A DNA stretch of 64,000 bases from Nitrospinota bacterium (GTDB lineage: Bacteria; Nitrospinota_A; UBA7883; JACRGQ01). Positions 9,155 through 55,544 of the stretch are shown piece by piece. The stretch is from assembly GCA_029881495.1 (NCBI GenBank), contig JAOUMJ010000002.1:2087-66086 (forward strand). The letters run 5' to 3'. A program made the position numbers and the translations under genes. The notes below the pieces were generated by a model, which was given only the letters and a program-made list of their open reading frames with translations, was not told the DNA's origin and made no database searches. How positions within the stretch are numbered: position 1 is the stretch's first letter; each line of letters opens with the position of its first letter.

Positions 9155-9514
9155 CTAATGTTTCATTTTTTTCAGGTATTCCGCAAGCACCTTCGGATCC
9201 ATTGGAGCCCCCGGCAATACGCTGCTCTTTTTACCCTGTTTGAGCCAGTTTTTAACAACACCGATGACAAGGTCGGGCGTTTCATCCGCCATGATTTTTA
9301 TCGTGAACATGTTTCTCGGAATTCCCTGGGGAATTATGACCTTTCCATCCGGCAGTATAGTGAGCTTTGGTATGTCCGATCTCCTTTTTAACTCTTTTTT
9401 CAGCTTCGGAACAGGCGGGAGGGATTCGACGGTCTTGACGGGCGGTTTTTGCGCGGGAGAGGATATATAGGCGATAAGGGCAATGACGAGCGAGGCCACA
9501 AGGACGAAGACCAA
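9155..9514 (-). CDS. hypothetical N-terminally membrane-anchored protein (119 aa)
   Basis: Single N-terminal TM (VFVLVASLVIALIAYI) followed by a Lys/Pro-rich segment. Tightly spaced between xerD and the HEAT gene. Confidence 0.5.
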   Translation of the reverse strand: MVFVLVASLVIALIAYISSPAQKPPVKTVESLPPVPKLKKELKRRSDIPKLTILPDGKVIIPQGIPRNMFTIKIMADETPDLVIGVVKNWLKQGKKSSVLPGAPMDPKVLAEYLKKMKH

Positions 9515-9534
9515 ACCGATTGCGATGTTGATAA

Positions 9535-10428
9535 CTACCCCCTTGGATGGGCTTTCGAATGTATTTTTGAAAGCCTTTCCCGGTTGATATGTGTATAGAT
9601 CTCCGTGGTCGTAAGCGTTGAATGTCCCAGCATGGACTGCACCGACCTAAGGTCGGCGCCTCTTTCCAGCAGATGAGTTGCAAAGGAATGGCGCAGTATG
9701 TGAGGCGATACGCCTCTCCTGATCTCTGCGGTAAGCGCATATTTTTTTAACATAAGCCAGAACGTCTGGCGCGTCATCGGTTTCCCAAGCCTCGAAAGGA
9801 AGAGGGCTTTAACGGGGCGTTTCCCCTTTTCGTATAGGGGCCTGCTTTCAAGCAGATACTTTTCCAGTTTTTCAATGCTTCTCTCGCCAATAGGGATAAG
9901 CCTCTCTTTAGAACCTTTGCCGGAAACCATTATATAGCCTGCCGACAGGTTCAGGTCGGAAGTATTTATCCCGACCAGTTCCGAAACCCGGATGCCTGTG
10001 GAGTAGATCAGCTCGAGCATGGCGGAATCCCTTATTCCTTCGGCTGTTGTTTCGTCGGGCTGCTCAAGCAACCTGTCGATCTCAGACAAGTTCAGAAATT
10101 TTGGGAGTCTTTTCGTGTTTACCGGGTGTTTCATGTTCCGGGTCGGGTCGTTCTCAAACCGGTTCCGGGCAACGCCATACCTGAAAAACATCCTGAGAGA
10201 GGAGAGTTTTCTTGAAATGGAGCGGGATGTGATGTTCTGTTTTCGCAGGAGGGTCATCCACGCTGTCACATCGTGCTGATCGATATTGCCGGAAACATCC
10301 TTTCCGGAGGTTTTCAGCGACTCGATAAAAGATTCCATATCCCGCCTGTACGCATCGACGGTATTTTCGGAAAGATTTCTTTCAACTGTAAGGTGTGTGA
10401 TCCATTCATCCAGAATGGGGAGCATCAA
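9535..10428 (-). CDS. xerD: tyrosine site-specific recombinase XerD/XerC family
   Basis: N-terminal SAM-like core-binding domain (LSENTVDAYRRDM). C-terminal catalytic R..HxxR..Y motifs (RHSFATHLLERGADLRSVQSMLGHSTLTTTEIYTHI). Confidence 0.88.
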   Translation of the reverse strand: MMLPILDEWITHLTVERNLSENTVDAYRRDMESFIESLKTSGKDVSGNIDQHDVTAWMTLLRKQNITSRSISRKLSSLRMFFRYGVARNRFENDPTRNMKHPVNTKRLPKFLNLSEIDRLLEQPDETTAEGIRDSAMLELIYSTGIRVSELVGINTSDLNLSAGYIMVSGKGSKERLIPIGERSIEKLEKYLLESRPLYEKGKRPVKALFLSRLGKPMTRQTFWLMLKKYALTAEIRRGVSPHILRHSFATHLLERGADLRSVQSMLGHSTLTTTEIYTHINRERLSKIHSKAHPRG

Positions 10429-11066
10429 GCGTATCCTTCCAGCTGCCGGAGAAACGGATTATGCTCCTTTTCTTCCCCAATGGTGGTGGTTTCACCATGT
10501 CCTGGGAACACGATCGTGTCATCCGGCAAAATGAAAAGTTTTTCCTTGATGGAAGCAAGAAGCTGCATGTGGTTCCCCCCGGTAAGGTCCGAGCGTCCGA
10601 TGGAGTTAAGAAACAGGGTATCTCCTGAAATCAGGAACCCATCACCATATATGCAAATCCCTCCAGGTGTATGACCGGGGGTATGTATTATTCTGATGCT
10701 GAAATCTTCGCACAGGTCGATTATTTCGCCGTCGGAAACGGTGGCGTCGTTTTTTGGGGCCTTCTTCACCCCCAGGTAGTCCGCGATATCCTGTTGTTCC
10801 TTGCTGGTCAGCATCCAGGCATCGTCCTCGTGGCAGAGGAAGGGTATGCTGAAGTGCCGAGCCACAGCTTCAACCCCGCCGGTGTGGTCGGAATGGCAGT
10901 GGGTATTGAGGACGAGCTTTGGGATCAGTTTCCTCTCTTCCATGAATTTGATGATCCTTGCCGCACTATCCCCAGGATCAATAACAATTGCCGACAGATG
11001 TTCATCGCAATAGAGAATGACGCAGTTCACGTCTATCGGACCGACGGTAATAACTTCAATTTTCAT
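10425..11066 (-). CDS. MBL-fold hydrolase, glyoxalase-II-like
   Basis: THCHSDHTGG metal motif. Start chosen at MKIEV with an AAGG RBS; the ORF track extends 14 codons further. Confidence 0.8.
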   Translation of the reverse strand: MKIEVITVGPIDVNCVILYCDEHLSAIVIDPGDSAARIIKFMEERKLIPKLVLNTHCHSDHTGGVEAVARHFSIPFLCHEDDAWMLTSKEQQDIADYLGVKKAPKNDATVSDGEIIDLCEDFSIRIIHTPGHTPGGICIYGDGFLISGDTLFLNSIGRSDLTGGNHMQLLASIKEKLFILPDDTIVFPGHGETTTIGEEKEHNPFLRQLEGYA

Positions 11067-11486
11067 AACCAGCCTTTTCTCTGAATAATTTCCGATATTG
11101 TACATCACTTGAATAGATTGAGCAGTTCCATTTATTAAATACTTTTACCTGAATTCAGTACAAGCGGACAAGCGGACAGGGTGATAAAATTTGGTGAGAG
11201 GGAAAGTATTTAGACCTGCCGGGGAGATGGAGGAGCAGGATATGTATGGCGGATCGCGATCTTCGGGTTTGTAACCCCGATATATCGCGTGCAGATGGTG
11301 CAAAATGGGCATTATGCCGAGTCATTTGCATCGCTTGTAGGCTCACGGTTGGAACAGATGGAAAAGAGCTGGAAAGATAAGTAAAATCCGGGCGTAAAAA
11401 ATCTGCTTTTTCCACTGGTTGCTTTAGGTTATTATATGTAAGTTAGAAAAAAGAACATTATCTTGAAATTTTAATAGGTGAGATTA

Positions 11487-12224
11487 ATGGGAAAAACTGC
11501 CTTAATAGTTGATGATGAGATGGAAGTGAGGCGTTGGGTCTCCAACCTGCTGACCACACAACTTGGCTTTGCAAAAACCATGGACGCTCCAAGCGGCGAA
11601 GCCGCGGTAGACCTTATAAAATCTGGCGAAAACTTTGACCTGATCTTCAGTTCGTGGGAGATGCCCAGGATGAAAGGGGATGAGCTCCTTGGCGAACTGA
11701 GGAAAATTCCTGAATCCCAGAATACGCCGTTCATCATGATGAGCTATAAAAAGGACAAGGATTCCCTTGTGAAAGCTATTCAGGCGGGAGTCAATAACTA
11801 CCTTGTAAAACCTCTCTCTGCCGGCATTTTCATGCAAAAGGTGAAAAAAACAATAAGCGACATGGAGAAGAAGGAGCTCGATTCCTTTAAAACAAAACGG
11901 AAGAATCCGGTTGATATTATTCTTGGCGATGATTTTTCCCATCCGGCCTCACTGCACAGCGTGACAAAATCAGGGTGTGTCGTTAGAGCGCCGTTGATAA
12001 AAGGGGGAGAAGTGGGGATTTACAGCCAGGTACATCTGGCAATATTCATGGATGGGATCCCTTTTAAGGTCCCTTCTGAGCTGGTAGCGCTGGAGGCGGA
12101 CAGGGTGGATTCATCAACAAGGCATTTTATAATGGTCACATTCAAATTTGGCGAACACGACCTGAAAATAGACGGAAAGATCGACAGGCTGATAAACAGC
12201 TTTTCTGCGGCAAATCAAAAATAA
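11487..12224 (+). CDS. response regulator with C-terminal PilZ-like domain (REC-PilZ)
   Basis: Receiver motifs LIVDDE..DLIFSSWEMPRMKG..MMSYK..NNYLVKP. C-terminal about 100 aa beta-rich domain consistent with PilZ. AGGTGA RBS 6 nt upstream of the ATG at 11487. Confidence 0.7.
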   Translation: MGKTALIVDDEMEVRRWVSNLLTTQLGFAKTMDAPSGEAAVDLIKSGENFDLIFSSWEMPRMKGDELLGELRKIPESQNTPFIMMSYKKDKDSLVKAIQAGVNNYLVKPLSAGIFMQKVKKTISDMEKKELDSFKTKRKNPVDIILGDDFSHPASLHSVTKSGCVVRAPLIKGGEVGIYSQVHLAIFMDGIPFKVPSELVALEADRVDSSTRHFIMVTFKFGEHDLKIDGKIDRLINSFSAANQK

Positions 12225-12307
12225 CAGATACTGAAGAGTCTCCCCGTTTCCGCTAAACCAAAAAGAATCCCCCTTTTTATTCGCTGAGCCAGTTTTAAAA
12301 AGCCTTT

Positions 12308-12607
12308 TTAACCCCCTTCGGCGACTTTAATTATGGTCCTTTCGATTTCAAGCCTGTTCTCTTCGGTAACAGGGCAGACGATATGGAACTTCTGTGCTCC
12401 GGCTCCCCCAAAGGTCAGGTCAAATCCGCTTCTGGTAGTGGTGGAGATCTTCATCCTGTTCCGGCCATGGGAGTTGTTGTTTATTACATCCGGGACTATC
12501 AGCGAGATGAAAGGGAGTTTTTGAAGCTGTTCAACGTATGGCAAAGCTTCCTTGAGGATATGGTGCCTGGTCTTTACCTTGTTTACCCGATATGTATGTT
12601 TTTTCAA
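12308..12607 (-). CDS. hypothetical protein (99 aa) downstream of ddl
   Basis: Clean ORF co-directional with ddl and separated by 14 nt. No recognisable family. Confidence 0.4.
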   Translation of the reverse strand: MKKHTYRVNKVKTRHHILKEALPYVEQLQKLPFISLIVPDVINNNSHGRNRMKISTTTRSGFDLTFGGAGAQKFHIVCPVTEENRLEIERTIIKVAEGG

Positions 12608-12621
12608 GGCGTCAGGCGAAA

Positions 12622-13794
12622 TCAGTGAGCCGATTTTTTCAGGTACTCCGTCACCGCTGAAAAGCCCGAAGTACGGCGGAGCATTTTTTTTCTTCTGAAA
12701 GTCGCTTCGGCATAGCCGACAAGTTTTTCAGTAAGTTTCGGGAAAGGGATACCGCTGGCTTCCCAAAGATAGAACGAGAGCGAGCCAGGGATGGAATTCA
12801 GCTCGGTCACCGTAAGCTCTCCATTACGCCCAAGGAGGAAATCAACACGGCAACAGCCGCTGCAGTCAAGCTCCCTGAAAGTGTTTTTCGCGATATCTTT
12901 TATCTTTTTCTCAGTCTCCGCAGGGATATCTGCCGGTATCGTTCTGGCTACGTTCGACATCCCTCCCTGTCCCTTTTTCCCCCCTTTGAGGTACTTCTGT
13001 TCGTAATCGAGGAATCCCTTGCTGTAAACCTCCTCGCAAACAGAGGTGATTATCTCGGTATCGTCTCCAATAACGGCGCAATTTATCTCTCTCGGCTCCT
13101 CGACACCTTCCTCAACTATTATCTTGCGGTCGTATCGGCACGCTTCATCCAGCGCAACGGAGAGAAACTCCTCGGAGTTCACGCGTGATATTCCAACGGA
13201 CGAGCCGGATGACGCAGGCTTTACGAACACGGGGAATTTGAAATTCCCGATGATCTCCTGCTTTATCCTGTCATGGCTCTTCTCGATATCGGCCTTTAGG
13301 TAATAGCGGTATTTCACTATCGGGACGCCCGCGGATTGAAGGATACGCTTTTGAAGCACCTTGTCCATTCCCACGGCACTGCCCGCTATTCCAGCGCCTA
13401 CGTATGGGAGGTCGGCAAGCTCCAGCAACCCTTGCAGGGAGCCGTCTTCCCCTCCAACTCCGTGGATGAGAGGAAAGGCAACATCGATATTCAGTTTTTT
13501 GTCCTGGAACTTTTGAAGAAATCCCGCGTCACCATGCCTTGCAGGGTAGGGGGGGATATACATCCTGTTGAATTTTGCGATATCGCTCTTTTTGCCGGTG
13601 AATATTTCTCCATATCTTGTTACGTCCTTCAGCCTGTCGTCGCATACCCAATCGCCGTCCTGTGTAATGTAGATCGGTATAGGATCGAACTTGGAAGTAT
13701 CGAAATTTTTAAATACCTGATGGAATGTGATTATGGATATTTCGTGTTCGGTAGAAGATCCTCCGAATATCAGTCCAACGCGTTTTTTTGACAT
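12622..13794 (-). CDS. ddl: D-alanine--D-alanine ligase family ATP-grasp enzyme (long form)
   Basis: Ddl N-domain GLIFGGSSTEHEIS. HGVGGEDGSLQGLLELADLPYVGAGIAGSAVGMDK. ATP-grasp C-domain. Confidence 0.8.
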   Translation of the reverse strand: MSKKRVGLIFGGSSTEHEISIITFHQVFKNFDTSKFDPIPIYITQDGDWVCDDRLKDVTRYGEIFTGKKSDIAKFNRMYIPPYPARHGDAGFLQKFQDKKLNIDVAFPLIHGVGGEDGSLQGLLELADLPYVGAGIAGSAVGMDKVLQKRILQSAGVPIVKYRYYLKADIEKSHDRIKQEIIGNFKFPVFVKPASSGSSVGISRVNSEEFLSVALDEACRYDRKIIVEEGVEEPREINCAVIGDDTEIITSVCEEVYSKGFLDYEQKYLKGGKKGQGGMSNVARTIPADIPAETEKKIKDIAKNTFRELDCSGCCRVDFLLGRNGELTVTELNSIPGSLSFYLWEASGIPFPKLTEKLVGYAEATFRRKKMLRRTSGFSAVTEYLKKSAH

Positions 13795-13881
13795 AGTGGT
13801 TAAATATACATTCTTTTACGTATTAATCAAACGGGTGGTTCAAATGATTTTATTGTCGGCGTCCAATAAGAGGTATAGAAT

Positions 13882-14271
13882 GTGCCGATGGAACTCAAGT
13901 TTATCAGCGCAAAGGATGCCCCCAAGGCTATTGGACCTTATTCACAGGCGGTCAAGGCCGGAAATACCATTTATCTGGCAGGCCAGATCCCTCTGGACCC
14001 CGCCACGATGGAACTCGTACCGGGGGGGATAAAAGAGCAGACAAAGAGGGTTCTGGACAACCTTGAAGCTGTGCTAAAGGAGGCTGGAGCCGGTTTCGGG
14101 AACGTCGTCAGGTCTACCGTATATATGAAGGACCTTTCGATGTTTGCCGATATGAACATGGTTTATGAATCAATGTTCAAGGACCACAAGCCTGCAAGAG
14201 TTACCATCCAGGTGGCGGGATTGCCGAAAGAGGCGCTTGTCGAGATAGAGGCCGTGGCGGTAATCGGCTGA
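13882..14271 (+). CDS. ridA: RidA/YjgF family reactive-intermediate deaminase
   Basis: PKAIGPYSQAV..IYLAGQIPLDP..EIEAVA signature. AAGAGG RBS 8 nt before a GTG start at 13882. Confidence 0.88.
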   Translation: MPMELKFISAKDAPKAIGPYSQAVKAGNTIYLAGQIPLDPATMELVPGGIKEQTKRVLDNLEAVLKEAGAGFGNVVRSTVYMKDLSMFADMNMVYESMFKDHKPARVTIQVAGLPKEALVEIEAVAVIG

Positions 14272-14316
14272 TTCGAATAAATCCCTTCTTGCAGGAAAGG
14301 TTGGGCGGAGGGGAGA

Positions 14317-14922
14317 TTACTTGTCCGGTTTTCTGAGTGTCTCCTTGTCCTGTCTGCTTTTCTGGTGCGTGGATTTCTGATGCGCAGTTTTTACCTGTTT
14401 TCCGGCATCGGGCCTGTTTGTTTTTGCCTTGCTGTCCCGGATGATGAATTTCTGGTCGATCCCGTAGAAGTAATCGGCGGAATCTATCATTATCTGTGAG
14501 CAGGTCTCAGGATAGCTCCAGACCTCGGCCTTGCACCCCCTCGATTTGATGTACCAGATAAGGGGAAGATAATCCTTGTCCCCACCGACGATGACAACTA
14601 CGTCGAGTTTTTCCGCCATTGTTACGGCATCGATTATCAGCCATGCGTCGACGTTCTTTACCGGCTGCTTTATCTCGCCTCCCTGTTCATGCCAGAACTT
14701 CTTGAAATCATCGGTTATATCCTTGTGCTGAGGCTTGTAATAGATGATCCTGGTTATCTGCCGTATTCCGCCTATCGCTTCGATAAGCTTTTTATAGTCG
14801 GTACGTCCGTTGTGGATAGTGTAACCGGACATTTCAACATTCTCAGCGTCTATGAAAATGCCGATTTTCTGGTTGATAAGGAATTTCCCTACTGTCGACT
14901 GCTCTTTTTGATACGTTACCAT
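14317..14922 (-). CDS. NYN-domain (LabA-like) protein
   Basis: IGIFIDAENV..VVIVGGDKDYLPLI pattern of LabA/NYN nucleases. Basic, Lys/Gln-rich C-terminal tail. Confidence 0.7.
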   Translation of the reverse strand: MVTYQKEQSTVGKFLINQKIGIFIDAENVEMSGYTIHNGRTDYKKLIEAIGGIRQITRIIYYKPQHKDITDDFKKFWHEQGGEIKQPVKNVDAWLIIDAVTMAEKLDVVVIVGGDKDYLPLIWYIKSRGCKAEVWSYPETCSQIMIDSADYFYGIDQKFIIRDSKAKTNRPDAGKQVKTAHQKSTHQKSRQDKETLRKPDK

Positions 14923-15269
14923 CCGTGAATATTATCACGGCCTACGAAAATAAAACAAAAAATCACTCAAAATTTGTGTCATTTATTTTCTACCAACAAA
15001 ATTTGTAGCTAGTCAGGCGACTATTGATCTTCTTCATGACTAACTGCATGATATATAAGGAGATAAGCGGAAATAAATAAACGGCACAATGATTGCTCTA
15101 TAAGTAGTCAAGCGGGTAATGCCGCTAAAGTTCGGATGGCGGGGTTCCGTCCGTTAAAAAGCCCTGAACGCCTCCAACGTTTAGAACGGGTACGGAATTT
15201 CCGAAAAAGTTTATCCCCAATAAACGCCCCCCGCCCCGAACTTTGTTTTCACTTCCAGATTCCCGGTAT

Positions 15270-15506
15270 CTATGTTGTCTTGCGGTATCCGCCTTCGCCG
15301 TCGCGCACAAACTTTGAAAACCCTTTATCCTTGAGATTGGAGTTGGAAAGGTGATTTTTCCCATGTGAGAAGGGGGAGAGGATTCGAATTACCCGATCTT
15401 GGCATACGGGGCAGAAATCAAGAGGTTTTTCAGCTAGAGTAATGAATTCAAATGGATCCCTGCATTTTGTAGTTTTATCGACATGTTTATATTCAAATAT
15501 CGGCAT
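15270..15506 (-). CDS. FmdB-like zinc-ribbon protein
   Basis: MPIFEYKH...CPVCQ arrangement typical of FmdB-family putative regulatory zinc ribbons. Confidence 0.55.
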   Translation of the reverse strand: MPIFEYKHVDKTTKCRDPFEFITLAEKPLDFCPVCQDRVIRILSPFSHGKNHLSNSNLKDKGFSKFVRDGEGGYRKTT

Positions 15507-15640
15507 CTTTTTACCTTTCAGGCTGTATTCTATATGTATTAATTTGGAAAAAATTAAAAAAGATCATTTTTTAGCTAAACTTTTACAAATTTGTGCCGAA
15601 AGGACTATTAGGATAGTTTTTTTTAAAGAGGACAGGTGTT

Positions 15641-15865
15641 ATGCAAGTAGATATTAAGAGGCCGGGAACAGGAAGTATTAAACCTCCATCACAGAGCAGC
15701 GGTATAAATCCTGGAAAGGCGGCGGGGCGATTGAAATCGATGGCTTCCAATGTGCTCAGGAGCTCGAAGCAGGTCGAATCGCACGTTGCGCAGGAGACGC
15801 AGAAGAATGTTCAGGCCGGCAAAAATCCGAAAACTATAAAAGGCGGTATTGATCTAAAGGCTTAG
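15641..15865 (+). CDS. hypothetical small basic protein (74 aa)
   Basis: ORF preceded by AAAGAGGA RBS. No homology recognised. Confidence 0.35.
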   Translation: MQVDIKRPGTGSIKPPSQSSGINPGKAAGRLKSMASNVLRSSKQVESHVAQETQKNVQAGKNPKTIKGGIDLKA

Positions 15866-15954
15866 TCCTTTCCGCCCGTTTCAGGATTTTTGCACGCTAC
15901 GAATCGCGGATGCCGTGCGCGCATCCCCAAGACAGGAAGAGAGGCTTGCTCCCT

Positions 15955-16126
15955 ACGCCCCCCCCAAAAAAATATGGGAGGGATCTAACCCCAGAAAATA
16001 AGGCCCGGTATGTAAGGTGTGACCATATTCTTGTGATAGGGGAGTATCCTTATGGCGAAACCGTGAAGCCCCGCGCTGTCGCAAGGTATCGGCCCTTTGA
16101 AATGGTAGCTCCCTTTCTCGATTTCC
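15955..16126. repeat. left copy of a roughly 170-bp direct repeat; a displaced duplicate of the glgP 3' end (46 codons plus stop-proximal sequence)
   Basis: Near-identical (2-3 mismatches) to 19374-19542. On the minus strand it encodes EIEKGSYHFKGPIPCDSAGLHGFAIRILPYHKNMVTPYIPGLIFWG*. Begins with a C8-A7 homopolymer pair. Confidence 0.9.
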
Positions 16127-16470
16127 AGGAAGCTCTTGTAAAGCGCCAACAGGCATGGGGGACGTATCGGCTCCATGATCCCTCTGGCGCTTGAAGTGCG
16201 CGCTCACGACATGTTTTTAGGCTGTATTCCGAAAAAATCCAATTGCATATTTTAATTACAATTTTATGAAAATAAACTCATATTTACAGGTAATTAAATA
16301 AATACAAAGCTCTCCATCGTAATAAAAATATGCCGTTTTATTTATTTTGTTTGCTACCAGAAATAGGTATATTAATATAATATCGTGCCTATATTAATAC
16401 AGATGTAATGCGTAGTTAATTTATGTGTGACATTTGAGCTAATCAGTTCATTTTAATTTGGGGGTATTTT

Positions 16471-18951
16471 ATGGCGCAAAGAAAGGTTTCCGTTCTCTTC
16501 TCTTCACTCAGGACATTACTGCTCTTTTTTTCTCTTATCCCGTTATTAACGGCTTGTCCAGCCCCTACGGGAGAACCTGTACTGACATCATTGGTCATAT
16601 CGGGTGATTCAGCGATAAATGAAAACAGCAGTGCCACATATACGGCCATGGCGGAGTATGATGACGGCAGTTCCAAGGTTGTCAACGCGTACTGGTCGGA
16701 GGACAGCTCAGACGCTTCCGTGGATACCAGCGGAAAGGTAACAACAACAGAGGTGTCGGCTGACACACTTTTCACCTTGAGGGCCGAATTTGATACAAAG
16801 ACCGCTACCAAGGCGATTACCATTAAGGATGTATTAAATACGACTGACACCACCACTGACACCACGACTGACACCACGACTGACACCACGACTGACACGA
16901 CCACTGACACGACCACTGACACGACCACTGACACGACCACTGACACAGGTACTGGCACCGCCATTCCTTCTGTGACATCGGTTACAATAAACGATGGGGT
17001 CGCTTCGACAATTTCGGCTACCGTTAATGTGTCTATAGATGCTACGGATGACGTTGGTGTTACAGGCTACTTCCTCTCTGAATCAGCCACAACACCGGCG
17101 CTTGCCGATTTCATAGACGCTACATCCGCGGCAACTTTTAACGTCTCGACAACATTTACGCTTAGCGCGACATTTGGCACAAAGACGATTTATGTATGGG
17201 TAAGAGATGCGGCGGGGAATATTTCAGCTTCTGCTTCCGATTCCATAGGCCTTAATAAATTCTATTCAGATACATCTATTTCCATCCCTGATTATGACAA
17301 CGTCAACTGGAATCCCGGTGTTGCGACATCGACGATCAATATATCTGGAGCAACGTTTGTTACCAATGTAAGGGTAGGCGTCGATATCTCCCATGTCGAT
17401 GATCAGGACTTGGAAATAAATTTGATAAGCCCTTCGGGTCGTAGGGTAACTCTTTTCAATTACAGCCCATGGGAAAACCAGGCCACAAACCCTGGCAATA
17501 ATTTGACCTCGGCTGTTTTCGATGACTTTGCGAGCCAGGAAATCTTAAAGTCAACGGGGCCTTTCAGCGGATCGTATCGACCCGTCGGCTACCTCGCGTC
17601 ATTAGTTGGTGAAAGCATTAATGGGAACTGGCAGCTGGAGGTAAATGATTGGGGAGTAGATAACATCGGAACCATAAACGGCTGGAGCCTGGAGTTTGAA
17701 ACCGCCGCCACCGCGACTGTTCCGGTTCCTCCTGCTCCATTTATTTCTTGGAGGTTTTTAGAAAGTCAAGGTACGCCTTCCATGTACTGGCATCAGCTAA
17801 ATAACAGCCTGGAAACCGTAACGACAAATATATATATCGGCACTGCTCCTGGCGTTACTCCGGTTCCGACAAGTACGCCCGATATTTTAAAAATGGCGCC
17901 TGATTATAGCGGGGCCAATTGGTTCAGTCATACCTTCGCCGCCAGCGCTACGACATATTACTATGTGCTGACTTTTGAAACTGCCGCTGGTGAGAGCCTC
18001 CCGTCCGAAGAGTTCCAAATTACAACACCGGATTCAGGGTTAGGAACGCAAACACTGTTGACAAGCGATTACGCGGGTACCGGCGCGATCACCGGCTGGC
18101 TCGGTACAGGAACCTGGGGTACTACCAGCTCGACGGTAAACGCAGGTTCGACATCGTTTACCGATAGCCCGGCAGGGAACTACGCGCCTAATACTAATTA
18201 CTTCCTGACATCCACAACAGGCGTTGATATTTCAGGTTATACAAATCCGGTACTCTCCTTTGCCCACAAATATGATTTTGGTATTTGGACAAACGACACT
18301 GGATTTGTAGAAATTTCTACTGATGCCGGCGTAACGTGGAACCAGTTGGCAGCCTATAACTCCTATGACGGATCGGTGACAGCATGGACGCCAGAAGCGC
18401 TTTCGTTGGCATCTTATGCAGGTGCCCCTTCACTCAGGGTACGATTCAGGTTGTTTATTATGGATAACGGCGTTGCAAACACCTTTGATGGCTGGTATCT
18501 GGACGATATCGCGATCATAGACGTTCCTCCTTCTGGCGTCTATAACTCAACTGGGGCAGTGGCAATTTCAGATAATTCAACTGTGACTTCCACAATAACT
18601 GTTGCGGATACCGGGACAGTTGCCAGTGTCAAGGTATATGTGAATATAACTCATACATGGTCATCTGATATGACAATTGTTCTTATAAGTCCTAGTGGAA
18701 CCAGTCTAATACTGGCTGATGGGCTGGGGTCGATTGATTCTTTTGTCGATACGATCTTTGATGATTCCGCAACCTTGGACATCAATACCGCAGGTGATCC
18801 GTATACAGGCTCGCATAGAGCGGCTTCAATGCTTTCAAACTTAAACGGAGAAACCATAAATGGAACATGGACTCTTGAAGTGACAGATAGCGTGAACGGT
18901 GATGTAGGTACAATAAACAGCTGGTATGTCGAGATTGTTCCTGCTCCTTGA
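16471..18951 (+). CDS. surface lipoprotein with Big-like domains, a (TTDT)n linker and two proprotein-convertase P-domains but no peptidase domain
   Basis: Lipoprotein signal ...LLTAC. Two P-domain blocks: VGVDISHVDDQDLEINLISPSGRRVTLF...INGNWQLEVNDWGVDNIGTINGWSLEFE and VKVYVNITHTWSSDMTIVLISPSGTSLIL...INGTWTLEVTDSVNGDVGTINSWYVEI. No S8 Asp-His-Ser motifs. Confidence 0.8.
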   Translation: MAQRKVSVLFSSLRTLLLFFSLIPLLTACPAPTGEPVLTSLVISGDSAINENSSATYTAMAEYDDGSSKVVNAYWSEDSSDASVDTSGKVTTTEVSADTLFTLRAEFDTKTATKAITIKDVLNTTDTTTDTTTDTTTDTTTDTTTDTTTDTTTDTTTDTGTGTAIPSVTSVTINDGVASTISATVNVSIDATDDVGVTGYFLSESATTPALADFIDATSAATFNVSTTFTLSATFGTKTIYVWVRDAAGNISASASDSIGLNKFYSDTSISIPDYDNVNWNPGVATSTINISGATFVTNVRVGVDISHVDDQDLEINLISPSGRRVTLFNYSPWENQATNPGNNLTSAVFDDFASQEILKSTGPFSGSYRPVGYLASLVGESINGNWQLEVNDWGVDNIGTINGWSLEFETAATATVPVPPAPFISWRFLESQGTPSMYWHQLNNSLETVTTNIYIGTAPGVTPVPTSTPDILKMAPDYSGANWFSHTFAASATTYYYVLTFETAAGESLPSEEFQITTPDSGLGTQTLLTSDYAGTGAITGWLGTGTWGTTSSTVNAGSTSFTDSPAGNYAPNTNYFLTSTTGVDISGYTNPVLSFAHKYDFGIWTNDTGFVEISTDAGVTWNQLAAYNSYDGSVTAWTPEALSLASYAGAPSLRVRFRLFIMDNGVANTFDGWYLDDIAIIDVPPSGVYNSTGAVAISDNSTVTSTITVADTGTVASVKVYVNITHTWSSDMTIVLISPSGTSLILADGLGSIDSFVDTIFDDSATLDINTAGDPYTGSHRAASMLSNLNGETINGTWTLEVTDSVNGDVGTINSWYVEIVPAP
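16841..16948 (+). repeat. about 9 tandem copies of a 12-bp unit (actgacaccacg / actgacacgacc) encoding (TTDT)n inside the lipoprotein gene
   Basis: Read directly in the sequence. The unit is in frame, so copy-number change alters linker length, not reading frame. Confidence 0.9.
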
Positions 18952-18969
18952 CGAGTAATTCAAATGTCA

Positions 18970-19003
18970 GTCGCCATCGGCCCGATTCTGGGCCGATGGT
19001 GAC
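18970..19003 (+). terminator. putative intrinsic terminator after the lipoprotein gene
   Basis: 14-bp stem gtcgccatcggccc/gggccgatggtgac with loop gattct, followed by gtttaat and a T-rich stretch. Confidence 0.45.
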
Positions 19004-19373
19004 GTTTAATCCGCCAGATTTTTGATTTTGCAAAACTCCCCCTAATTCTGTTTGGGGGAGTTCCTTTGGTTTGCACAGCAGTTTGGGGTAGCCACAACCA
19101 AAAGCAACCCCCTTTTAAGGCTTTTGCGAAGGAAGTGAGCGTAGAGGAGCCGGGATTATACAGACCTTTGTGCTTTTCCGCTTCTAAACCGGTTTCCTTG
19201 CGGTTACATCCCCCCTGGGTAAATTTCGCCCCATGTTTGGAGCGTCGAGCGGTTTTTCCGGGAGGGATACAAGAGAATGGGAGAGATATCTGACGGTGCA
19301 GTCCGGTTTTTTTGATTATAGCGGTGCTGGAAACCACCCCCGGAGGTACAATGACGGGGATGAGAATAGAGGC

Positions 19374-19542
19374 TCGCCCCCCCCCAAATATGGGAGGGAT
19401 CTAACCCCAGAAAATAAGGCCCGGTATGTAAGGTGTGACCATATTCTTGTGATAGGGGAGTATTCTTATGGCGAAACCGTGAAGCCCCGCGCTGTCGCAA
19501 GGTATCGACCCTTTGAAATGGTAGCTCCCTTTCTCGATTTCC
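19374..19542. repeat. right copy of the roughly 170-bp direct repeat; the functional 3' end of glgP
   Basis: Begins with a C9 tract followed by aaatatgggagggatctaacc... It is contiguous with the intact glgP reading frame. Confidence 0.9.
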
Positions 19543-21959
19543 CCTTCACACGTCATCGCGATCGATTTACCTTCGTTTATCTCGCCGTTGCTGTCCAGAT
19601 TGCCGTAATAGCACTCTACGACGATATCGTCCGGGGTCAGGTCCCCCAGCCTTACCTTTACCTCGACCGGCTTCAGGTTGCCGACAGCTGGGTGGAGGAA
19701 ACTGTCCTCCTTTATCTCCAATATCTTTATGTGAGGCCAGCCGTTTTTCAGCTTGTGCTTCCAGGCCGCGAGCGATTTTATTATTTCGGGCTGCTGTTCG
19801 ACCTGTTCATGCCAGCGTCTGCCGAGATCGAGGTAGAACTTCTCGGTGTACTCCCTTACCATCCTGTTGGTATTGAAGATCGGGATGAGGTTCATCATGG
19901 CGCTCTTCATCTTCCCTATCCACCCTCTCGGGAGCCCGTCCGTGCCCCTTGTGTAGAAGAGGGGGATGATGTCCTTCTCAAGAATTTCATAGAGGTTTCT
20001 CCCCTCGATAGAATCCTGGATCGCTTCATCCTTGTACTCCTCGCCGGCGCCTATTGCCCATCCGTTTTCATGGGAGTAGATTTCGTCCCACCATCCGTCG
20101 AGAACGGAGAGATTGAGGACGCCGTTTGCGGCGGCTTTCATTCCGCTGGTACCGCTCGCCTCAAGGGGGCGCCGCGGGTTGTTCAGCCAGATGTCGCACC
20201 CCTGAACCATATAGCGGGCGATGTCGATATCGTAATTTTCAAGAAAGATGATCTTTCGAAGGAACCCCATCTCCCTGGCTGTATGGACTATCTTCTTGAT
20301 GAAGTTCTTTCCCTCGGTATCGGCGGGGTGGGCCTTTCCGGCGAATATTATCTGTACGGGCCTCTCCTTGTTCTCAAGGATCTTCTCGAGCCTTTTGAGA
20401 TCGCTTAGGATCAGCGTTCCCCTCTTGTATGTGGCAAATCTCCGGCCAAATCCGATGGTAAGCGCCTCGGGATTAAGCGATTCCTCCGCCTGTTGCATTT
20501 CGGAATCGGACGCCCCCCGCTTCTTCAGCTGTTCGAGGAGCCTTTTGCGCGAAAAGGCCACGAGACGCTCCCTGCGCCTTTCGTGCATGCGCCAGAGTTC
20601 CGCGTCCGGAATGGCGGCGATTTTTTTCCATATGGTGTCGTCTCCCGGTTTGGTTATCCATTTGGTGCCGAGATAGCGTTCGTAGAGGTTTTTCAGCTCC
20701 TCGGATACCCATGTGCGTATATGTATTCCGTTGGTGATCGAGCGGATAGGAACATGGCTCACCGGAAGGCCGGGCCAAATGTTGTGCCACATCTGCCTGG
20801 ATATCTTGCCATGGAGTTTCGAAACTCCGTTATTGCCGGCAGAGAGCCTGAGGGCAAGCACCGTCATGCCGAACGGTTCGTTATGGTCTTCGGGATTGAT
20901 CCTCCCCAGGGTGAGGAGCCTGTCGACATCAAGCCGGGTCTCCCTTAAAAGCGGCTCCATGTATCTTTTGAGCATGCTCTTTTCAAACAGCTCGTTGCCT
21001 GCGGGAACCGGCGTATGGGTTGTGAAAACGGTTGAAACCCTGCACGCCTCCTTTGCTTCAAAGAAGTCGAATCCGTGCTTTTTCATCAGGTGAGCGATAC
21101 GCTCGACCCCCAAAAAGGCGGAATGCCCCTCGTTCATGTGGAATACCGTCGGATTCAGCCCCAGAGCCTCGAATATCTTTATCCCGCCAATGCCGAGGAG
21201 TATCTCCTGCTGTATCCGCATCTCCCTGTCTCCGCCGTAGAGCTGGGATGTTATCTGCCTGTCCTCTGGGGAGTTCTCCTGAATGTTCGTATCGAGGAGA
21301 TAAAGGGGAATTCTGCCGACTTCCGCCTTCCAGATATGCGCATATACGTTTCTTCCAGGGAACGGTATTTCGACCTTTACTGGTATTCTATCCTTCTCCT
21401 CCCTTTTAAGCGGAAGAAGGTAGAGGCTGTTTTCGGGATATTTTTCCTGCTGCCACCCGTCGGGATTGAGGTACTGCGTAAAGTAGCCGTGCGAGTATGC
21501 CAAACCGATCCCGACAAGCGGAAGGCCGAGATCGCTTGCCGATTTCAGATGGTCCCCGGCCAGCACTCCAAGGCCGCCGGAGTATATCGGCAGGCATTCA
21601 TCTATTCCGAATTCAAGCGAGAAATAGGCGATCTTTGTATCCTTGCTCCATTTCTGCAAGTGCTTCTCCTTGAACCATGTATCCGCTTTGAGATATTCCT
21701 CCAGGCTTATCAAAACCGTCTCAAGATGGGTAAGGAATCCGTCGTCCTCGGCAAGTTCGCGCAATCTCTCCTGGGTTGCGGTGCCGAGTACCTTGACCGG
21801 ATTGTGGTTGCAGGAATCCCAAAGGTCGGAATCAATCCTGCGAAGAAGGTTTACCGCGTCATGGTTCCAGGTCCACCAGAGGTTATATGCGATATCTTCA
21901 AGCGGTTTTAGCTTTTCCGGCAGTGAAGGTTCAACTATAAATTTTCTGTACTCAGGCAT
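19401..21959 (-). CDS. glgP: alpha-glucan (glycogen/maltodextrin) phosphorylase, GT35 family
   Basis: 852 aa. PLP-site region EASGTSGMKAAANGVLNLSVLDGWWDE. Overall architecture of the alpha-glucan phosphorylase family. Confidence 0.88.
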   Translation of the reverse strand: MPEYRKFIVEPSLPEKLKPLEDIAYNLWWTWNHDAVNLLRRIDSDLWDSCNHNPVKVLGTATQERLRELAEDDGFLTHLETVLISLEEYLKADTWFKEKHLQKWSKDTKIAYFSLEFGIDECLPIYSGGLGVLAGDHLKSASDLGLPLVGIGLAYSHGYFTQYLNPDGWQQEKYPENSLYLLPLKREEKDRIPVKVEIPFPGRNVYAHIWKAEVGRIPLYLLDTNIQENSPEDRQITSQLYGGDREMRIQQEILLGIGGIKIFEALGLNPTVFHMNEGHSAFLGVERIAHLMKKHGFDFFEAKEACRVSTVFTTHTPVPAGNELFEKSMLKRYMEPLLRETRLDVDRLLTLGRINPEDHNEPFGMTVLALRLSAGNNGVSKLHGKISRQMWHNIWPGLPVSHVPIRSITNGIHIRTWVSEELKNLYERYLGTKWITKPGDDTIWKKIAAIPDAELWRMHERRRERLVAFSRKRLLEQLKKRGASDSEMQQAEESLNPEALTIGFGRRFATYKRGTLILSDLKRLEKILENKERPVQIIFAGKAHPADTEGKNFIKKIVHTAREMGFLRKIIFLENYDIDIARYMVQGCDIWLNNPRRPLEASGTSGMKAAANGVLNLSVLDGWWDEIYSHENGWAIGAGEEYKDEAIQDSIEGRNLYEILEKDIIPLFYTRGTDGLPRGWIGKMKSAMMNLIPIFNTNRMVREYTEKFYLDLGRRWHEQVEQQPEIIKSLAAWKHKLKNGWPHIKILEIKEDSFLHPAVGNLKPVEVKVRLGDLTPDDIVVECYYGNLDSNGEINEGKSIAMTCEGEIEKGSYHFKGSIPCDSAGLHGFAIRILPYHKNMVTPYIPGLIFWG

Positions 21960-22184
21960 AATTGCCCCCTGTTTTTACCTGTTCGTAACCGCGTATATGA
22001 TCAATCCGCAAAAAGTTAACCCTCATCACGTTCATTTTAACGTGTTGTGAGGATTTTCTAAATCATTATTATGCCGGATTTGAAAAGTAAACCTTGGATA
22101 TAAAGGGAATTCTCCCCCCCTTCAAAAAAGGGGGGACTCGCTAAATCGGAATCGGAACGGAGATGTAGAGCGAGCTTCCGGGGT

Positions 22185-22841
22185 TCAAAGCGAGATAATC
22201 GCGTTTGAATATTCCCTGTAATGATGCAGCACTTTGTCCGCATAGTAATACTTTATCCTTTTTCTCCTCTTCAGGTCTTTGCTTATGGAAGCGGGCCCAC
22301 GGTTGTATGCCTCAAGGGCCAATCGGACGTTCCCGAACTGCTGAAGAAGTTTTGAAAGATAATATGTCCCAAGCGCGATATTTTTCCTGCTGTCGTACAG
22401 GTTGCCTTCGTGATAATAGGCGACATTGGCTTTGTCGGCCACATAGCTGGCGGTAGGGGGGAGAAGCTGCATCAGACCTACGGCCCCCTTGTGCGAAACA
22501 GCAAATCGCTGAAAATTGCTCTCGGTCCTGATTACTGCAAGTATCAAAACAGGATCAATATTGTGCTCCTCGCTCTTGGCGAGAATGAGCCTGGCCAGTT
22601 TTTCAGGATTATGGTAGAGATTGCCGTCGGATTCCTTTAGGAGCGCCTCAACCTTGGCGCAAAATTCCGCCCTTAGCATCCAGTCGTTGTATTCCACCTT
22701 GAGACTTTTCAATTCTGCAATAAGGCCAGGCTTGGCATCTGCACTCTCCTGCTGTTTAAAATCCTCCACTGTGCGCAAATATCCAAACCCGAGAAGAAAT
22801 GGTATCGAAATAATTATGTAAAAAAAGCCTTTTATCCTCAT
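22185..22841 (-). CDS. membrane-anchored lytic transglycosylase (SLT domain)
   Basis: N-terminal TM. SLT motif ILAVIRTESNFQ...AVGLMQLLPPTA...YN.G. Confidence 0.8.
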   Translation of the reverse strand: MRIKGFFYIIISIPFLLGFGYLRTVEDFKQQESADAKPGLIAELKSLKVEYNDWMLRAEFCAKVEALLKESDGNLYHNPEKLARLILAKSEEHNIDPVLILAVIRTESNFQRFAVSHKGAVGLMQLLPPTASYVADKANVAYYHEGNLYDSRKNIALGTYYLSKLLQQFGNVRLALEAYNRGPASISKDLKRRKRIKYYYADKVLHHYREYSNAIISL

Positions 22842-23100
22842 CCTTTTCTCCTGTTTTTCCGTAGAGTACAGTATAGTTTGCGCTTGCCATTTATGGCTGG
22901 CAGAGTGGAGAGAGCCAAAATTTTAGTTCTGCATAGTCTCCACTTACGATACCGTGCTCAATTTAAAAGTTTGTTAAGCCGTATTTTGTTAGTAATTATA
23001 TATATAATGTATTTAAAAGAGAAGTATTTTATTAAAAAAATAAATTCAGATAACACCAATAAATACAGCGTGATAGACTTGGGCTGGGTTGTGAAATATG

Positions 23101-23109
23101 TGTTATAAT
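23101..23109 (+). promoter_or_regulatory. candidate extended -10 element (TGtTATAAT) in the AT-rich region upstream of the giant gene
   Basis: tgttataat at 23101-23109, about 115 nt upstream of the ATG at 23226. Surrounding region is over 70% AT. Confidence 0.3.
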
Positions 23110-23225
23110 GTACCAGTAGGAGGAGAAAGACCAAATATGTATGTCTTTCTATTGCCAATTATGTGTATTTGCATAACCATATTTGGAGTGAAATCTGGAT
23201 ATGTAGGTTTCCAAGGTAAAAAAAG

Positions 23226-26200
23226 ATGATAGTTTCCTGCCCAAACTGCGAAAGCAGGTACGATATCGAGCCTGGCGGAATTCCGCAAGGGGGGACATAC
23301 GCGCATTGCACCAATTGCGAAAACATTTTCTTCCTGAAAAAACGTAAAAAGGGTGAAAAACCTCGCGCCGCCGCCGTCGGAGCCGGCTCCGCATTGTCGG
23401 AAAGGGATACCGGCGAGATGAGGATTGCTGAAGATAACGGATTTAATCCAGATACCGACTCATTCCCGACCGGAGAAGAGGAGACGGCGCAGGAGCCGGA
23501 ATCGCTCTTTGATGAGATGTTGAATGAAGGTTTCGACGAAGGCCAGCCTCCGGGCGAACCTATGGAGGAGACATTCGCAAGTCAACAGAACGGTGTTCAG
23601 ACATTTTCAATCGAGGATGAGAACGGAGGTGTTGAAGAGAGCATCGCCGACGCGGTAGAAGAGGATATTGACGAGTTTTCTGACGGCACATCCGAGGTGT
23701 TGGAGCTTGAAGCGCCAAATCTCCTGATGGATGAATCTCTAGCAGAGATTGAAGAGGCCGATTTCGAGAGGGATTCTGAGGACCATATTCTTAATTTCGA
23801 AGATGAGGAAAGCGATGAGCCCCAGACGGTAGAAAATGAGATCAGCGACATTCTTCAGTCGGCAGGTCTGTTCGGCAATGGTGAGGCCGAGCCTATCAAG
23901 GCGGAGAGAGGGTTTTCCAGCATGGAAGAGGCGGGCGGGAGCGAATCCGAAGCGGATATCTTTGATGAAGTTAAATCCGAGATGGATATGTTTGAAGAGG
24001 TGAAATCTGAAATCGAAAAAACCGCGCCCCCCGAGACAATGACTGCCGACCTGGCGGAAGAGAGCGAGGTAGGGAGGATATTTGATGACATAAAGAGCGG
24101 AGCCGTTTCAGACGACAGCGGATCTCCTTCAAGCGAAACCGAATTCCAGGACGAAATAGACAAGCTGTTTGCGATGGCGGATGGGGAGGGAGACGCGTCA
24201 ACGCAGGCAGTCGGAAGAGGGGTGATCGATTCAATACTGGATGATTCCAGTTTTGATACAGAGGAGCATGAAGGGGACGCAATCAACGGCAATGGCGGGT
24301 ACAACAATCCGTTTGAAGAGTCGCTCCTTGGAACAGATTCCGATCCGGTGCATGACGAGGTTGATGATATCTTTTCAAGCGGGGGATTGTTCGATGATGA
24401 ATCTACAGGAGCGAATGCAAAGGAGCGGGGGCTCAAGGAGGGGACAGCGTCAGTACCAATGTCCGTGCAGGATGAGATAGATGAGCTTTTTGAACGTAAC
24501 CAGGAAAAGGGACAGACCTACATCATGCCTGAAAGCGCGGTTGAGGATGTGCTTGCACAGGCGGATCAAAGTTCCAAATCCGGCTTTGACGATGTCGACA
24601 TCGACGCTATATTTGCCGAATCGAGCCAGCAGGAGTTTTCACATGGCACAGAGCCGACTGATACGGAGATAGTAAATCTGGAATATACGCCCTTGCCTGG
24701 AGAGTCCTCCCCAATGGATGAATTTGCTGGCGAGGATATTGAATCCCTCTTTTCGGAAGAAAGCGAAGTTCCAGGCAAAAAAGACTCATTGGCGGAAGTT
24801 GATTCAGAAAAAACGGAATATGGCGGAGGTGGCGTGGAGCTCTCCCTGCAGGATGAAATAAACTCTATCTTGTCAGATTCATCTTCGGATTCGGATTCGC
24901 CGCTTGAATCGCCCGAGGCGCTTAGCGAACTGGATACGATAATATTTGAAAGTACAAAGAGAGGTGATTCTGCAAAAGGGCAGTCTGATGTTGATTCACT
25001 TTTCGATGTGTCAAAAGAGAATGACAAGCCCGAGCCAGCGCCAGCAGAGTTACCCACATCTTCCGGTTCCGGCGCTCAATTCAACATAGACGCCATATTT
25101 GCCGAGGCGGCCGGCGGCGGGTCTACAGGCTCGGCAGAGCCGGAGGCTTCAAAAGGTGTTTCATCAGGCGAAGAGATAGACATAGACGCGATATTTGCCG
25201 AGGTTAAAGGTGGCGGGTCTACAGGCTCGGCAGAGCCGGAGGCTTCAAAAGGTGTTTCATCAGGCGAAGAGATAGACATAGACGCAATATTTGCCGAGGT
25301 TAAAGGTGGCGGGTCTACAGTCTCGGCAGAGCCTGAGGCATCAAAAGACGTTTCGTCAGACGAAGAGATAGACATAGACGCAATATTTGCCGAGGTTAAA
25401 GGTGGCGGGTCTACAGTCTCGGCAGAGCCTGAGGCATCAAAAGATGTTTCATCAGATGAAGAGATAGATATAGACGCAATATTTGCCGAGGTTAAAGGTG
25501 GCGGGTCGACAGGCTCGGCAGAGCCTGAGGCATCAAAAGACGTTTCGTCAGATGAAGAGATAGACATAGACGCGATATTTGCCGAGGCTCAAGGCGGCGG
25601 GTCTACAGTCTCGGCAGAGCCGGAGGCTTCAAAAGATGTTTCGTCAGACGAAGAGATAGACATAGACGCGATATTTGCCGAGGCTCAAGGCGGCGGGTCG
25701 ACAGGCTCGGCAGAGCCGGAGGCTTCAAAAGATGTTTCGTCAGACGAAGAGATAGACATAGACGCGATATTTGCCGAGGCGACAGAAGGTATAGACGCAG
25801 AGCTGACAGATTCAGATACTTCCTCCAGCGTAGATCAAGGGGGACAGGCTGATATTGATGCCTTCTTTGCCGAGACAACCGGTGAAAAGAATGTAATTCC
25901 TGTTGTTGCGGATAAGGAAATTGACGTTAACCTGGGGGGACAGAACGATATAGACGCTATGTTTGCCGAGGCGGCAGGGGGGGAGACCGCTACGGTATCT
26001 GAGGCCCCTTCCGGCGACGACCTCGGCGGTCAGGATGATATTGATTCGATGTTTGCCGAAGCGGCAGGCGGGGAAACTGCTACGGTATCTGAGGCCCCTT
26101 CCGGCGACGACCTCGGCGGTCAGGATGATATTGATTCGATGTTTGCCGAGATGACAGACGGGGAACCCCCCGCGGTATCTGAGGCCCCTTCCGGCGACGA

Positions 26201-53800: not shown

Positions 53801-53832
53801 AAAAAAAGCCCCGGCAATCTGATTGCCGGGGC
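53801..53832 (-). terminator. intrinsic terminator downstream of groEL
   Basis: On the minus strand a perfect 12-bp inverted repeat (gccccggcaatc / gattgccggggc) is followed by a T7 run. It lies 40 nt after the groEL stop. Confidence 0.8.
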
Positions 53833-53870
53833 GAGGAATGTTTTCCTTTGTGCCTAATCTGGGAGGGGGC

Positions 53871-55544
<1,674 letters not shown>

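Follow-up and report, generated by a model that had tools for sequence, protein, structure and literature searches.

Integrases that use protein genes as their targets keep a fragment of the gene in attP, by which the coding sequence is made whole again (PMC7192596, Mageeney et al.), and the cis-mobilizable elements (CIMEs) have lost the genes for integration and transfer while they kept attL and attR (PMC5704250). A described case of gene-end restoration is prophage e14, with its icdC remnant, in Escherichia coli (PMC13626634). In E. coli K-12 this prophage begins 165 bp into icd, and its other end carries the icdC pseudogene, likewise of 165 bp; over this length the two are ~93% identical (an alignment counted by hand), and weaker homology continues past the stop codon into the terminator hairpin. 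The locus described here lies in a 64,000-nt stretch of the genome of an uncultured Nitrospinota bacterium (assembly GCA_029881495.1, contig JAOUMJ010000002.1, positions 2,087 to 66,086), which is termed the window and numbered from its first base. In this window a unique segment with one gene (U; 16127-19374, 3,248 bp) is placed between two near-identical copies (R_left and R_right) of the 3′ end of glgP, the gene of an alpha-glucan phosphorylase, and U together with one R comes to ~3.4 kb. The structure, below called the islet, is very probably a real, lineage-specific insertion with duplication of the gene end.

The target gene, glgP (19401..21959, minus strand), was identified from its open reading frame (ORF) and domain matches as an intact gene of 852 codons with DUF3417, Phosphorylase and GlgP_C domains; the protein aligns full-length with its orthologues and is identical to MDH5541534.1 from a Nitrospinota metagenome-assembled genome (MAG). 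A repeat search of the window gave an ungapped direct-repeat pair at 15961-16126 and 19377-19542 (166 nt, 96% identity), which in a gapped alignment becomes R_left at 15956-16126 (171 nt) and R_right at 19375-19542 (168 nt), with 98% identity; the near-identical segments that the initial annotation had reported at the glgP end were thus placed correctly to within a base or two. R is the sole dispersed direct repeat in the window that reaches 40 nt, the remaining repeats being tandem arrays inside one gene, and even one exact repeat of 30 nt is expected by chance only ~2e-9 times. Both copies encode on the minus strand the residues EIEKGSYHFKG[P/S]IPCDSAGLHGFAIRILPYHKNMVTPYIPGLIFWG followed by the stop codon, and R reaches ~29 nt beyond this stop, through a CCCTCCC...GGGGGGG hairpin. 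The differences between the copies are two substitutions in the coding part and a homopolymer run just 3′ of the stop codon (C8A7 vs. C9A3), and the blocks of exact identity measure 10, 78, 43 and 34 nt. One substitution is non-synonymous (CCG, Pro, in R_left and TCG, Ser, in R_right) at a position where orthologues vary as well (L, E or K), and the other one is synonymous (AGG/AGA). R_right (minus strand) is continuous with the body of glgP and provides its functional last 46 codons and stop, while R_left (minus strand) is a displaced glgP 3′ end with the same 46 codons, the stop and the ~29 nt with the hairpin, found where glgP ends in relatives with an empty site. The left junction reads from the flank of a small ORF, orf74, through R into AGGAAGCTC, the side of R that faces this flank being CCCTACG; at the right junction U ends with GAGGCTCG, after which R and the glgP-side sequence CCCTTCACACG follow. 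Homology was not detected past R into the flanks: the local alignment of 15800-15960 with 19215-19376 reached a score of 17, which was equalled by 75 of 300 shuffles, and nothing was found on the other side.

The comparison with related loci is what identifies this arrangement as an insertion. The order of the locus is conserved, namely Zn-ribbon protein, SLT, glgP, small ORF, NYN, RidA, Ddl, response regulator, metallo-beta-lactamase-fold protein and XerD, and synteny is kept on both sides of the site, with SLT and the Zn-ribbon protein on one side and NYN, RidA, Ddl, the response regulator and XerD on the other. The small ORF of the window is orf74 (15641..15865, plus strand), which is convergent to glgP, has its counterpart directly downstream of glgP in empty-site relatives and so marks the ancestral flank. 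The closest relative is a co-occurring congener (L086, assembled from the same ENA sample), whose GlgP is 88% identical in amino acids and 78% in nucleotides; there, 128 bp separate glgP from a convergent ORF of 75 aa (orf75), a clear orthologue of orf74, and NYN comes next. The same empty site is present in the independently assembled L088, a JGI contig 99.6% identical to L086. Three loci whose GlgP is 72-73% identical in amino acids (L082, L083 and L084) have glgP, a gap of 98-118 bp, the small ORF and NYN, and L001 and L085 are also without the insert, which gives an unoccupied site in seven related loci, none of them from the same species as the window. Taken over the congener and the five more distant Nitrospinota-type loci, ~100-190 bp separate glgP from the small ORF, which NYN follows, except that one locus leads straight to NYN.

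In the window, 119 bp lie between the stop codon of R_left and orf74, and in the closest relatives the stop of the real glgP is 98-128 bp away from the small ORF. A three-way alignment shows the congener to be colinear with R_right through the body of glgP and R, whereas R_left aligns only from the first base of R. By synteny, R_left thus sits at the ancestral position of the glgP end and R_right is the functional end. The initial annotation had called the right copy the genuine end, which holds for its function, but the ancestral position is that of the left copy. Its expectation of an empty site in relatives was borne out by the congener and by the more distant loci, and these sites also support its central proposal, an insertion at the 3′ end of glgP that carried a replacement end and left the old one displaced. 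The R of the congener is 78% identical, as opposed to 98% between the two copies in the window, and the sampling of this clade is very thin, with no GlgP between 88% and 100% identity. From these alignments, the simplest history would be the gain of U with one R in the window lineage after its split from the lineage of L086.

The cargo of U is a single gene (16471..18951, plus strand), defined by its ORF, domain matches and atypical codons, for a predicted lipoprotein of 826 aa. The protein has a signal peptide and an LLTAC lipobox (read by eye), and its domains comprise a TTDT tandem repeat, Ig-like domains, two proprotein-convertase P-domains and a Reelin-subrepeat-B/MAM-like domain; no protease domain is among the domain matches. 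Searches of 5.8 billion and 1.8 billion proteins gave matches to large multidomain surface proteins at the domain level only, and a collinear full-length homologue was not among them; the attempt to find a donor through orthologues of the cargo was given up for this reason. The synonymous codon use of the gene is the most atypical among 37 genes: its GC content at third codon positions (GC3) is 0.468 vs. 0.601 +/- 0.051 in 36 host genes (lowest host gene 0.507), and its synonymous-codon log-likelihood per codon is -1.254 vs. -1.064 +/- 0.054 (lowest host gene -1.156). This supports a foreign origin, although an odd amino-acid composition or low expression could have added to the deviation. The compositional contrast between insert and flanks for which the initial annotation had looked is therefore found in GC3 and synonymous codons, but not in the total GC of the cargo (0.479), which is inside the host range.

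Upstream of the cargo gene, the left arm (16127..16470, plus strand) consists of 74 nt of normal GC and a 270-nt AT-rich region; the stretch 16200-16470 has a GC of 0.27 and includes the lowest 200-nt value of the window, 0.235. The AT-rich leader that had been described as unlike its surroundings is real, but it is not unique, since other intergenic regions of the window reach 0.27-0.28; AT-rich promoter-type intergenic regions are common in this genome, and the leader is therefore not diagnostic. Downstream, the right arm (18952..19374, plus strand) opens with two strong hairpins at 18955-19065, next to the cargo stop, and continues for ~310 nt as non-coding DNA that is likewise structured and shows no recognisable gene remnant. 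This 423-nt tail has a GC of 0.51 and folds better than its shuffles on the plus strand (z = -4.4; the two hairpins, z = -7.1), and it is possible that it acts as a small RNA or regulatory element. No Rfam family exceeded its threshold in the tail; a match to Vault RNA at 24.5 bits, with a gathering score of 34, was taken as chance. The right arm was also considered as a piece of the region downstream of the donor's glgP, an idea that was dropped when no DNA similarity to this downstream region was found, either in the chromosome or in five relatives, and an orf74-like match of 18.5 bits in it is on the wrong strand and was judged spurious. The motif TTTTTAGGCTGTATTC, seen upstream of both orf74 and the cargo gene, has 3 matches vs. 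0.72 expected, a number reached in 5 of 100 shuffles, which is not significant.

How could such a structure arise? The preferred reading, at about even odds, is an integrative element: U would have been inserted in Campbell fashion by an integrase whose attP held a mimic of the glgP end, in the design of e14 in icd, and would now be a decayed or CIME-like non-autonomous islet. A circular DNA with a near-identical glgP end (the 46 codons, the stop and the ~29 nt with the hairpin) would have met the chromosomal glgP 3′ end, and a single reciprocal crossover between the chromosomal R and the circle of R and U would give, in this order, the glgP body, R_right, U, R_left and orf74, with an intact glgP and, beyond U, a 3′ fragment of 46 codons left behind. 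The order R-U-R, with one R on the gene body and the other on the ancestral flank, is what a single crossover with such a circle produces, and R_right would then be the end supplied by the element. An integrative element that has part of its target gene in attP is the best-documented natural origin of circles of this kind. The agent would be the site-specific integrase of the element, and the integrase module would either have been deleted later or always have been supplied in trans, as in a CIME; of the payload only the gene for the surface lipoprotein would survive, flanked by its AT-rich upstream region and its terminator hairpins. The circular intermediate, the role of an integrase and its loss are inferred. 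The initial annotation had likened the event to the integration of tRNA islands, and of this proposal the insertion with a replacement end is retained, whereas its integrase-mediated step is argued from likeness only.

Several results weigh against an integrative element. Pfam was searched with the cargo, with stop-to-stop pieces of the tail of at least 58 aa and with one 59-aa piece spanning the left arm, and PHROGs with the ORFs in and next to U; neither revealed an integrase, excisionase, relaxase, transposase or phage gene in U, which agrees with the earlier description of a single cargo gene without an integrase. No words of 9-12 nt, direct or inverted, are common to both insert arms, as arm-type repeats would be. 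In IMG/VR there was no match for the cargo protein, the GlgP C-terminus or a 51-nt pattern from R, and blastn against phage and plasmid records gave no match to U. A pattern scan of JGI metagenomes returned only the empty site of the congener and not the species of the window itself, and in the fetched flanks of 84 other glgP loci no second glgP end was seen; glgP is thus not a demonstrated recurrent attB. A single gene of ordinary appearance, together with its upstream region and terminators, takes up nearly all of U, and little trace of a larger decayed element is left. Furthermore, an R identity of 98% between the copies, compared with 78% for the congener, indicates that the incoming copy came from the same species lineage, and such an origin, as judged from the alignments, would fit homologous recombination or in-situ duplication equally well.

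The searches for other mobility features were carried out on the same material. The non-coding arms gave no Pfam or PHROG match that would point to the remnant of an integrase or of another gene, no tRNA or tmRNA is present in the 64-kb window, and terminal inverted repeats are absent from the ends of U. A dif/Xer model was rejected on finding no dif-like site in or near R, where the best matches reach 11-14 of 28 positions, which is background (the E. coli, Bacillus subtilis and core consensus were used, from which the dif of Nitrospinota possibly differs). A XerD-type tyrosine recombinase is encoded ~6 kb away (9535-10428, minus strand; XerD equivalog, 362 bits vs. a cut-off of 330), and it is regarded as a housekeeping gene because it is syntenic in relatives without the insert. 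Ten other candidate ORFs of the window (277-483 aa) proved to be ordinary metabolic, transport or signalling genes, and an origin of U from a phage, satellite or plasmid was discarded in view of the missing IMG/VR and phage or plasmid matches. U shows no similarity to the rest of the window or to 88 fetched loci; the search for the repeat and the cargo elsewhere, which had been recommended at the outset, has thereby been made in the window, these loci, IMG/VR and the phage and plasmid records, and no further copy was found.

The integrative element has to be weighed against readings in which nothing was inserted at all. A separate circle of ~3.4 kb, or a segment from another strain that shares R, might have been threaded into the chromosome contig by the assembler, and in support of this it can be said that the window and the second assembly, L081 (ENA ERZ27296367 k141_300392, 277 kb), are both short-read metagenomes of essentially one strain with possibly common reads, and that the contig of a strain 96.5% identical (L087, ENA ERZ27296335 k141_934905; 2 kb, equal to window 13849-15891) breaks 65 nt before R_left. 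However, L081 covers window 9365-25301 with the same R-U-R structure, is identical base for base across all four junctions and differs only in two tandem-repeat regions, and both outer flanks are syntenic chromosome. Moreover, the two R copies carry three differences, each 141-mer within R spans at least one variant site and no 141-mer is common to both copies, so that an assembly graph at k=141 ties each copy to its own flanks through unique k-mers; because of this separation an artefact is judged very unlikely. Still less credence is given to the view that U is native, that is, that the cargo was present here in the ancestor, that the repeat goes back to an old segmental duplication and that the relatives have lost U. 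The total GC of U (0.467) is indeed near that of the window (0.493), but seven of seven related loci are empty (two assemblies of the congener and five distant loci), which would require repeated precise losses, the codon-usage values of the cargo fall beyond those of all 36 host genes, and orthologous glgP ends differ by 22%, as opposed to an identity of 98% between the repeat copies.

If an insertion is accepted, the same structure might be produced without an integrase of its own. In a RecA-dependent Campbell insertion, a non-replicating circle (an excised circle, a small plasmid or transformed DNA) with a glgP end of the same species would recombine over the ~170 nt of R; segments of uninterrupted identity of 78, 43 and 34 nt, such as R contains, are by the general rule of the minimal processing segment enough for exchange by RecA. 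The incoming R, far nearer to this species than to the congener, and the missing integrase and att-arm features speak for such a process, which nevertheless leaves unexplained how a circle had earlier come to combine a foreign gene with a glgP end; no such circle, plasmid or donor arrangement was found in the searches, and a gene-end mimic that extends only slightly beyond the stop codon and hairpin is typical of an integrase attP. RecA-driven insertion is considered improbable, though it deserves to be kept in mind. Somewhat more doubtful is an in-situ duplication, in which a break in the glgP end took up the foreign U and ~170 nt were duplicated, either when long staggered ends were filled in or through template switching; the copies, identical to begin with, would have drifted since. 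It would account for the very high identity of the copies and for the lack of a recombinase, terminal inverted repeats and att-arm signals, and the R boundary at a C/A homopolymer run and hairpin is a plausible site of stalling or slippage. To our knowledge, however, illegitimate recombination in bacteria does not regularly give target duplications of ~170 nt; neither microhomology nor extended homology is significant at the junctions, and the extent of the duplication, from inside the gene to just past the stop and hairpin and exactly preserving glgP, would be a coincidence, part of which selection for an intact glgP could explain. Finally, there is a small chance that the islet is a recombinase-free cassette of one gene with a ~170-nt gene-end mimic, which would move between strains, inserting and excising by host homologous recombination alone or with a helper recombinase encoded elsewhere.

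Some further features of the locus can be added. The displaced end forms, together with the insert, a chimeric ORF of 63 codons (15985..16176, minus strand) that carries 17 insert-derived codons before the 46 glgP codons; the reading frames confirmed this composition, which had been proposed earlier, and the ORF, listed at NCBI as hypothetical protein OEY64_01070, has a Pfam match to GlgP_C (PF28476). It is probably a pseudogene fragment and most simply a functionless by-product. The product of orf74 (74 aa, annotated in the MAG as hypothetical protein OEY64_01065) is rich in Lys and Gly, ~85-90% identical (by eye) in the congener and recognisable at 72% GlgP identity, and it has no match in Pfam, NCBIfam or PHROG. 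As to the two regions in which the window and L081 differ, the first (16816-16983) is a 12-nt tandem repeat of the cargo gene coding for (TTDT)n, where the difference of 36 nt (3 units; 826 vs. 814 aa) is either copy-number variation or collapse by the assembler. All other differences fall into an array of a gene for a 1589-aa protein with an N-terminal zinc ribbon (23226-27995; repeats at 24990-26559), where a 96-nt unit occurs 8 times and a 90-nt unit 6 times, and where the L081 contig ends. Elsewhere in the window (53823-55529) two ORFs of 552 aa overlap almost fully on opposite strands (53823-55481, plus; 53871-55529, minus). In L085, whose GlgP is 66% identical, a block of defence-like genes (AAA_14/DUF4143, PDDEXK_4, AAA ATPase, WYL/WCX and Nmad3; 15240-22562) follows ddl; it is absent from the window and looks like a separate variable spot near the same locus.

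The locus offers a base-resolved view of gene gain in Nitrospinota, a phylum known almost entirely from metagenomes, since the site, the stranded end and the empty site of the congener are all visible, and glgP joins the protein genes that can take up an insertion with restoration of their end. The footprint persists around one adaptive-looking gene for a surface protein without a recombinase, and island finders that are anchored on integrases would therefore miss it. With identity blocks of 78, 43 and 34 nt in R, the recombination system of the host should be able to remove U and leave one glgP end behind. The islet may therefore be unstable, and cells of the population are predicted to differ in whether they have this cell-surface protein. 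That it is found in the dominant population suggests a recent arrival or selection for the lipoprotein. Were homology-guided cassettes of single genes general in uncultured lineages, they would be a cheap way of gene gain, overlooked by integrase-keyed finders, in which the gene-end mimic keeps the insertion harmless. There is no departure from known principles here, and the general importance is modest.

Among known systems, e14 and phage 21 in icd come nearest to the islet. In both cases the boundary is inside the 3′ end of a metabolic gene, a near-identical replacement end is provided (165 bp in e14 and 141 nt plus ~29 nt in the islet) and the original end is stranded as a fragment; the homology goes just past the stop into a hairpin, and the differences are few and mostly silent or conservative. 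The near-identical copies of R, the glgP frame preserved with a displaced fragment and the empty attB in relatives are all features of the e14 type, whereas a tyrosine or serine integrase, as judged by Pfam and PHROG, is missing inside the islet. e14 is also much larger, with 15.2 kb, intE, xisE and phage genes, as compared with 3.25 kb, one non-phage gene and no recombinase; the repeat identity is higher in the islet (98% vs. ~93%), and for its target, glgP, no other case of integration was found.

With CIMEs the islet shares direct repeats at the 3′ end of a conserved protein gene and the absence of integration and transfer genes, and it too might in principle be excised or mobilised by the integrase of a related element; a parallel is the CIME at the 3′ end of fda in Streptococcus thermophilus. 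Regarded as a CIME, the islet would have R as its candidate att sites, which show no arm-type repeats, but the repeats are ~170 nt instead of a few tens of nt, and no parent integrative and conjugative element (ICE) or integrative and mobilizable element (IME) of the same specificity was found, nor any related autonomous ICE, IME or phage in IMG/VR, the phage and plasmid records, the JGI scan and the 84 glgP loci. Integrative mobile elements exploiting Xer (IMEX; XerCD/dif) are likewise integrase-less and flanked by direct repeats, and a XerD gene is situated 6 kb away; R, however, is without a dif-like site, and this XerD is the syntenic housekeeping gene of insert-free relatives. Transposons and insertion sequences differ from the islet, which has no transposase and no terminal inverted repeats at the ends of U, and a duplication of ~170 nt is far longer than any transposon target duplication known to us. 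tRNA and tmRNA islands of the Islander type are likewise bounded by an intact target gene and, opposite it, by a displaced 3′ fragment (PMC7192596), yet they normally carry int near one end, while the islet targets a protein gene, with no tRNA and no integrase near either of its ends. By analogy, the islet would work like the e14/icd system, without being assigned to a named element family. What is known in this design is the restoration of a gene end with displacement of the original one; what is new is the target, glgP, the phylum, the tiny size and a single non-mobile cargo gene in an islet that has no recombinase.

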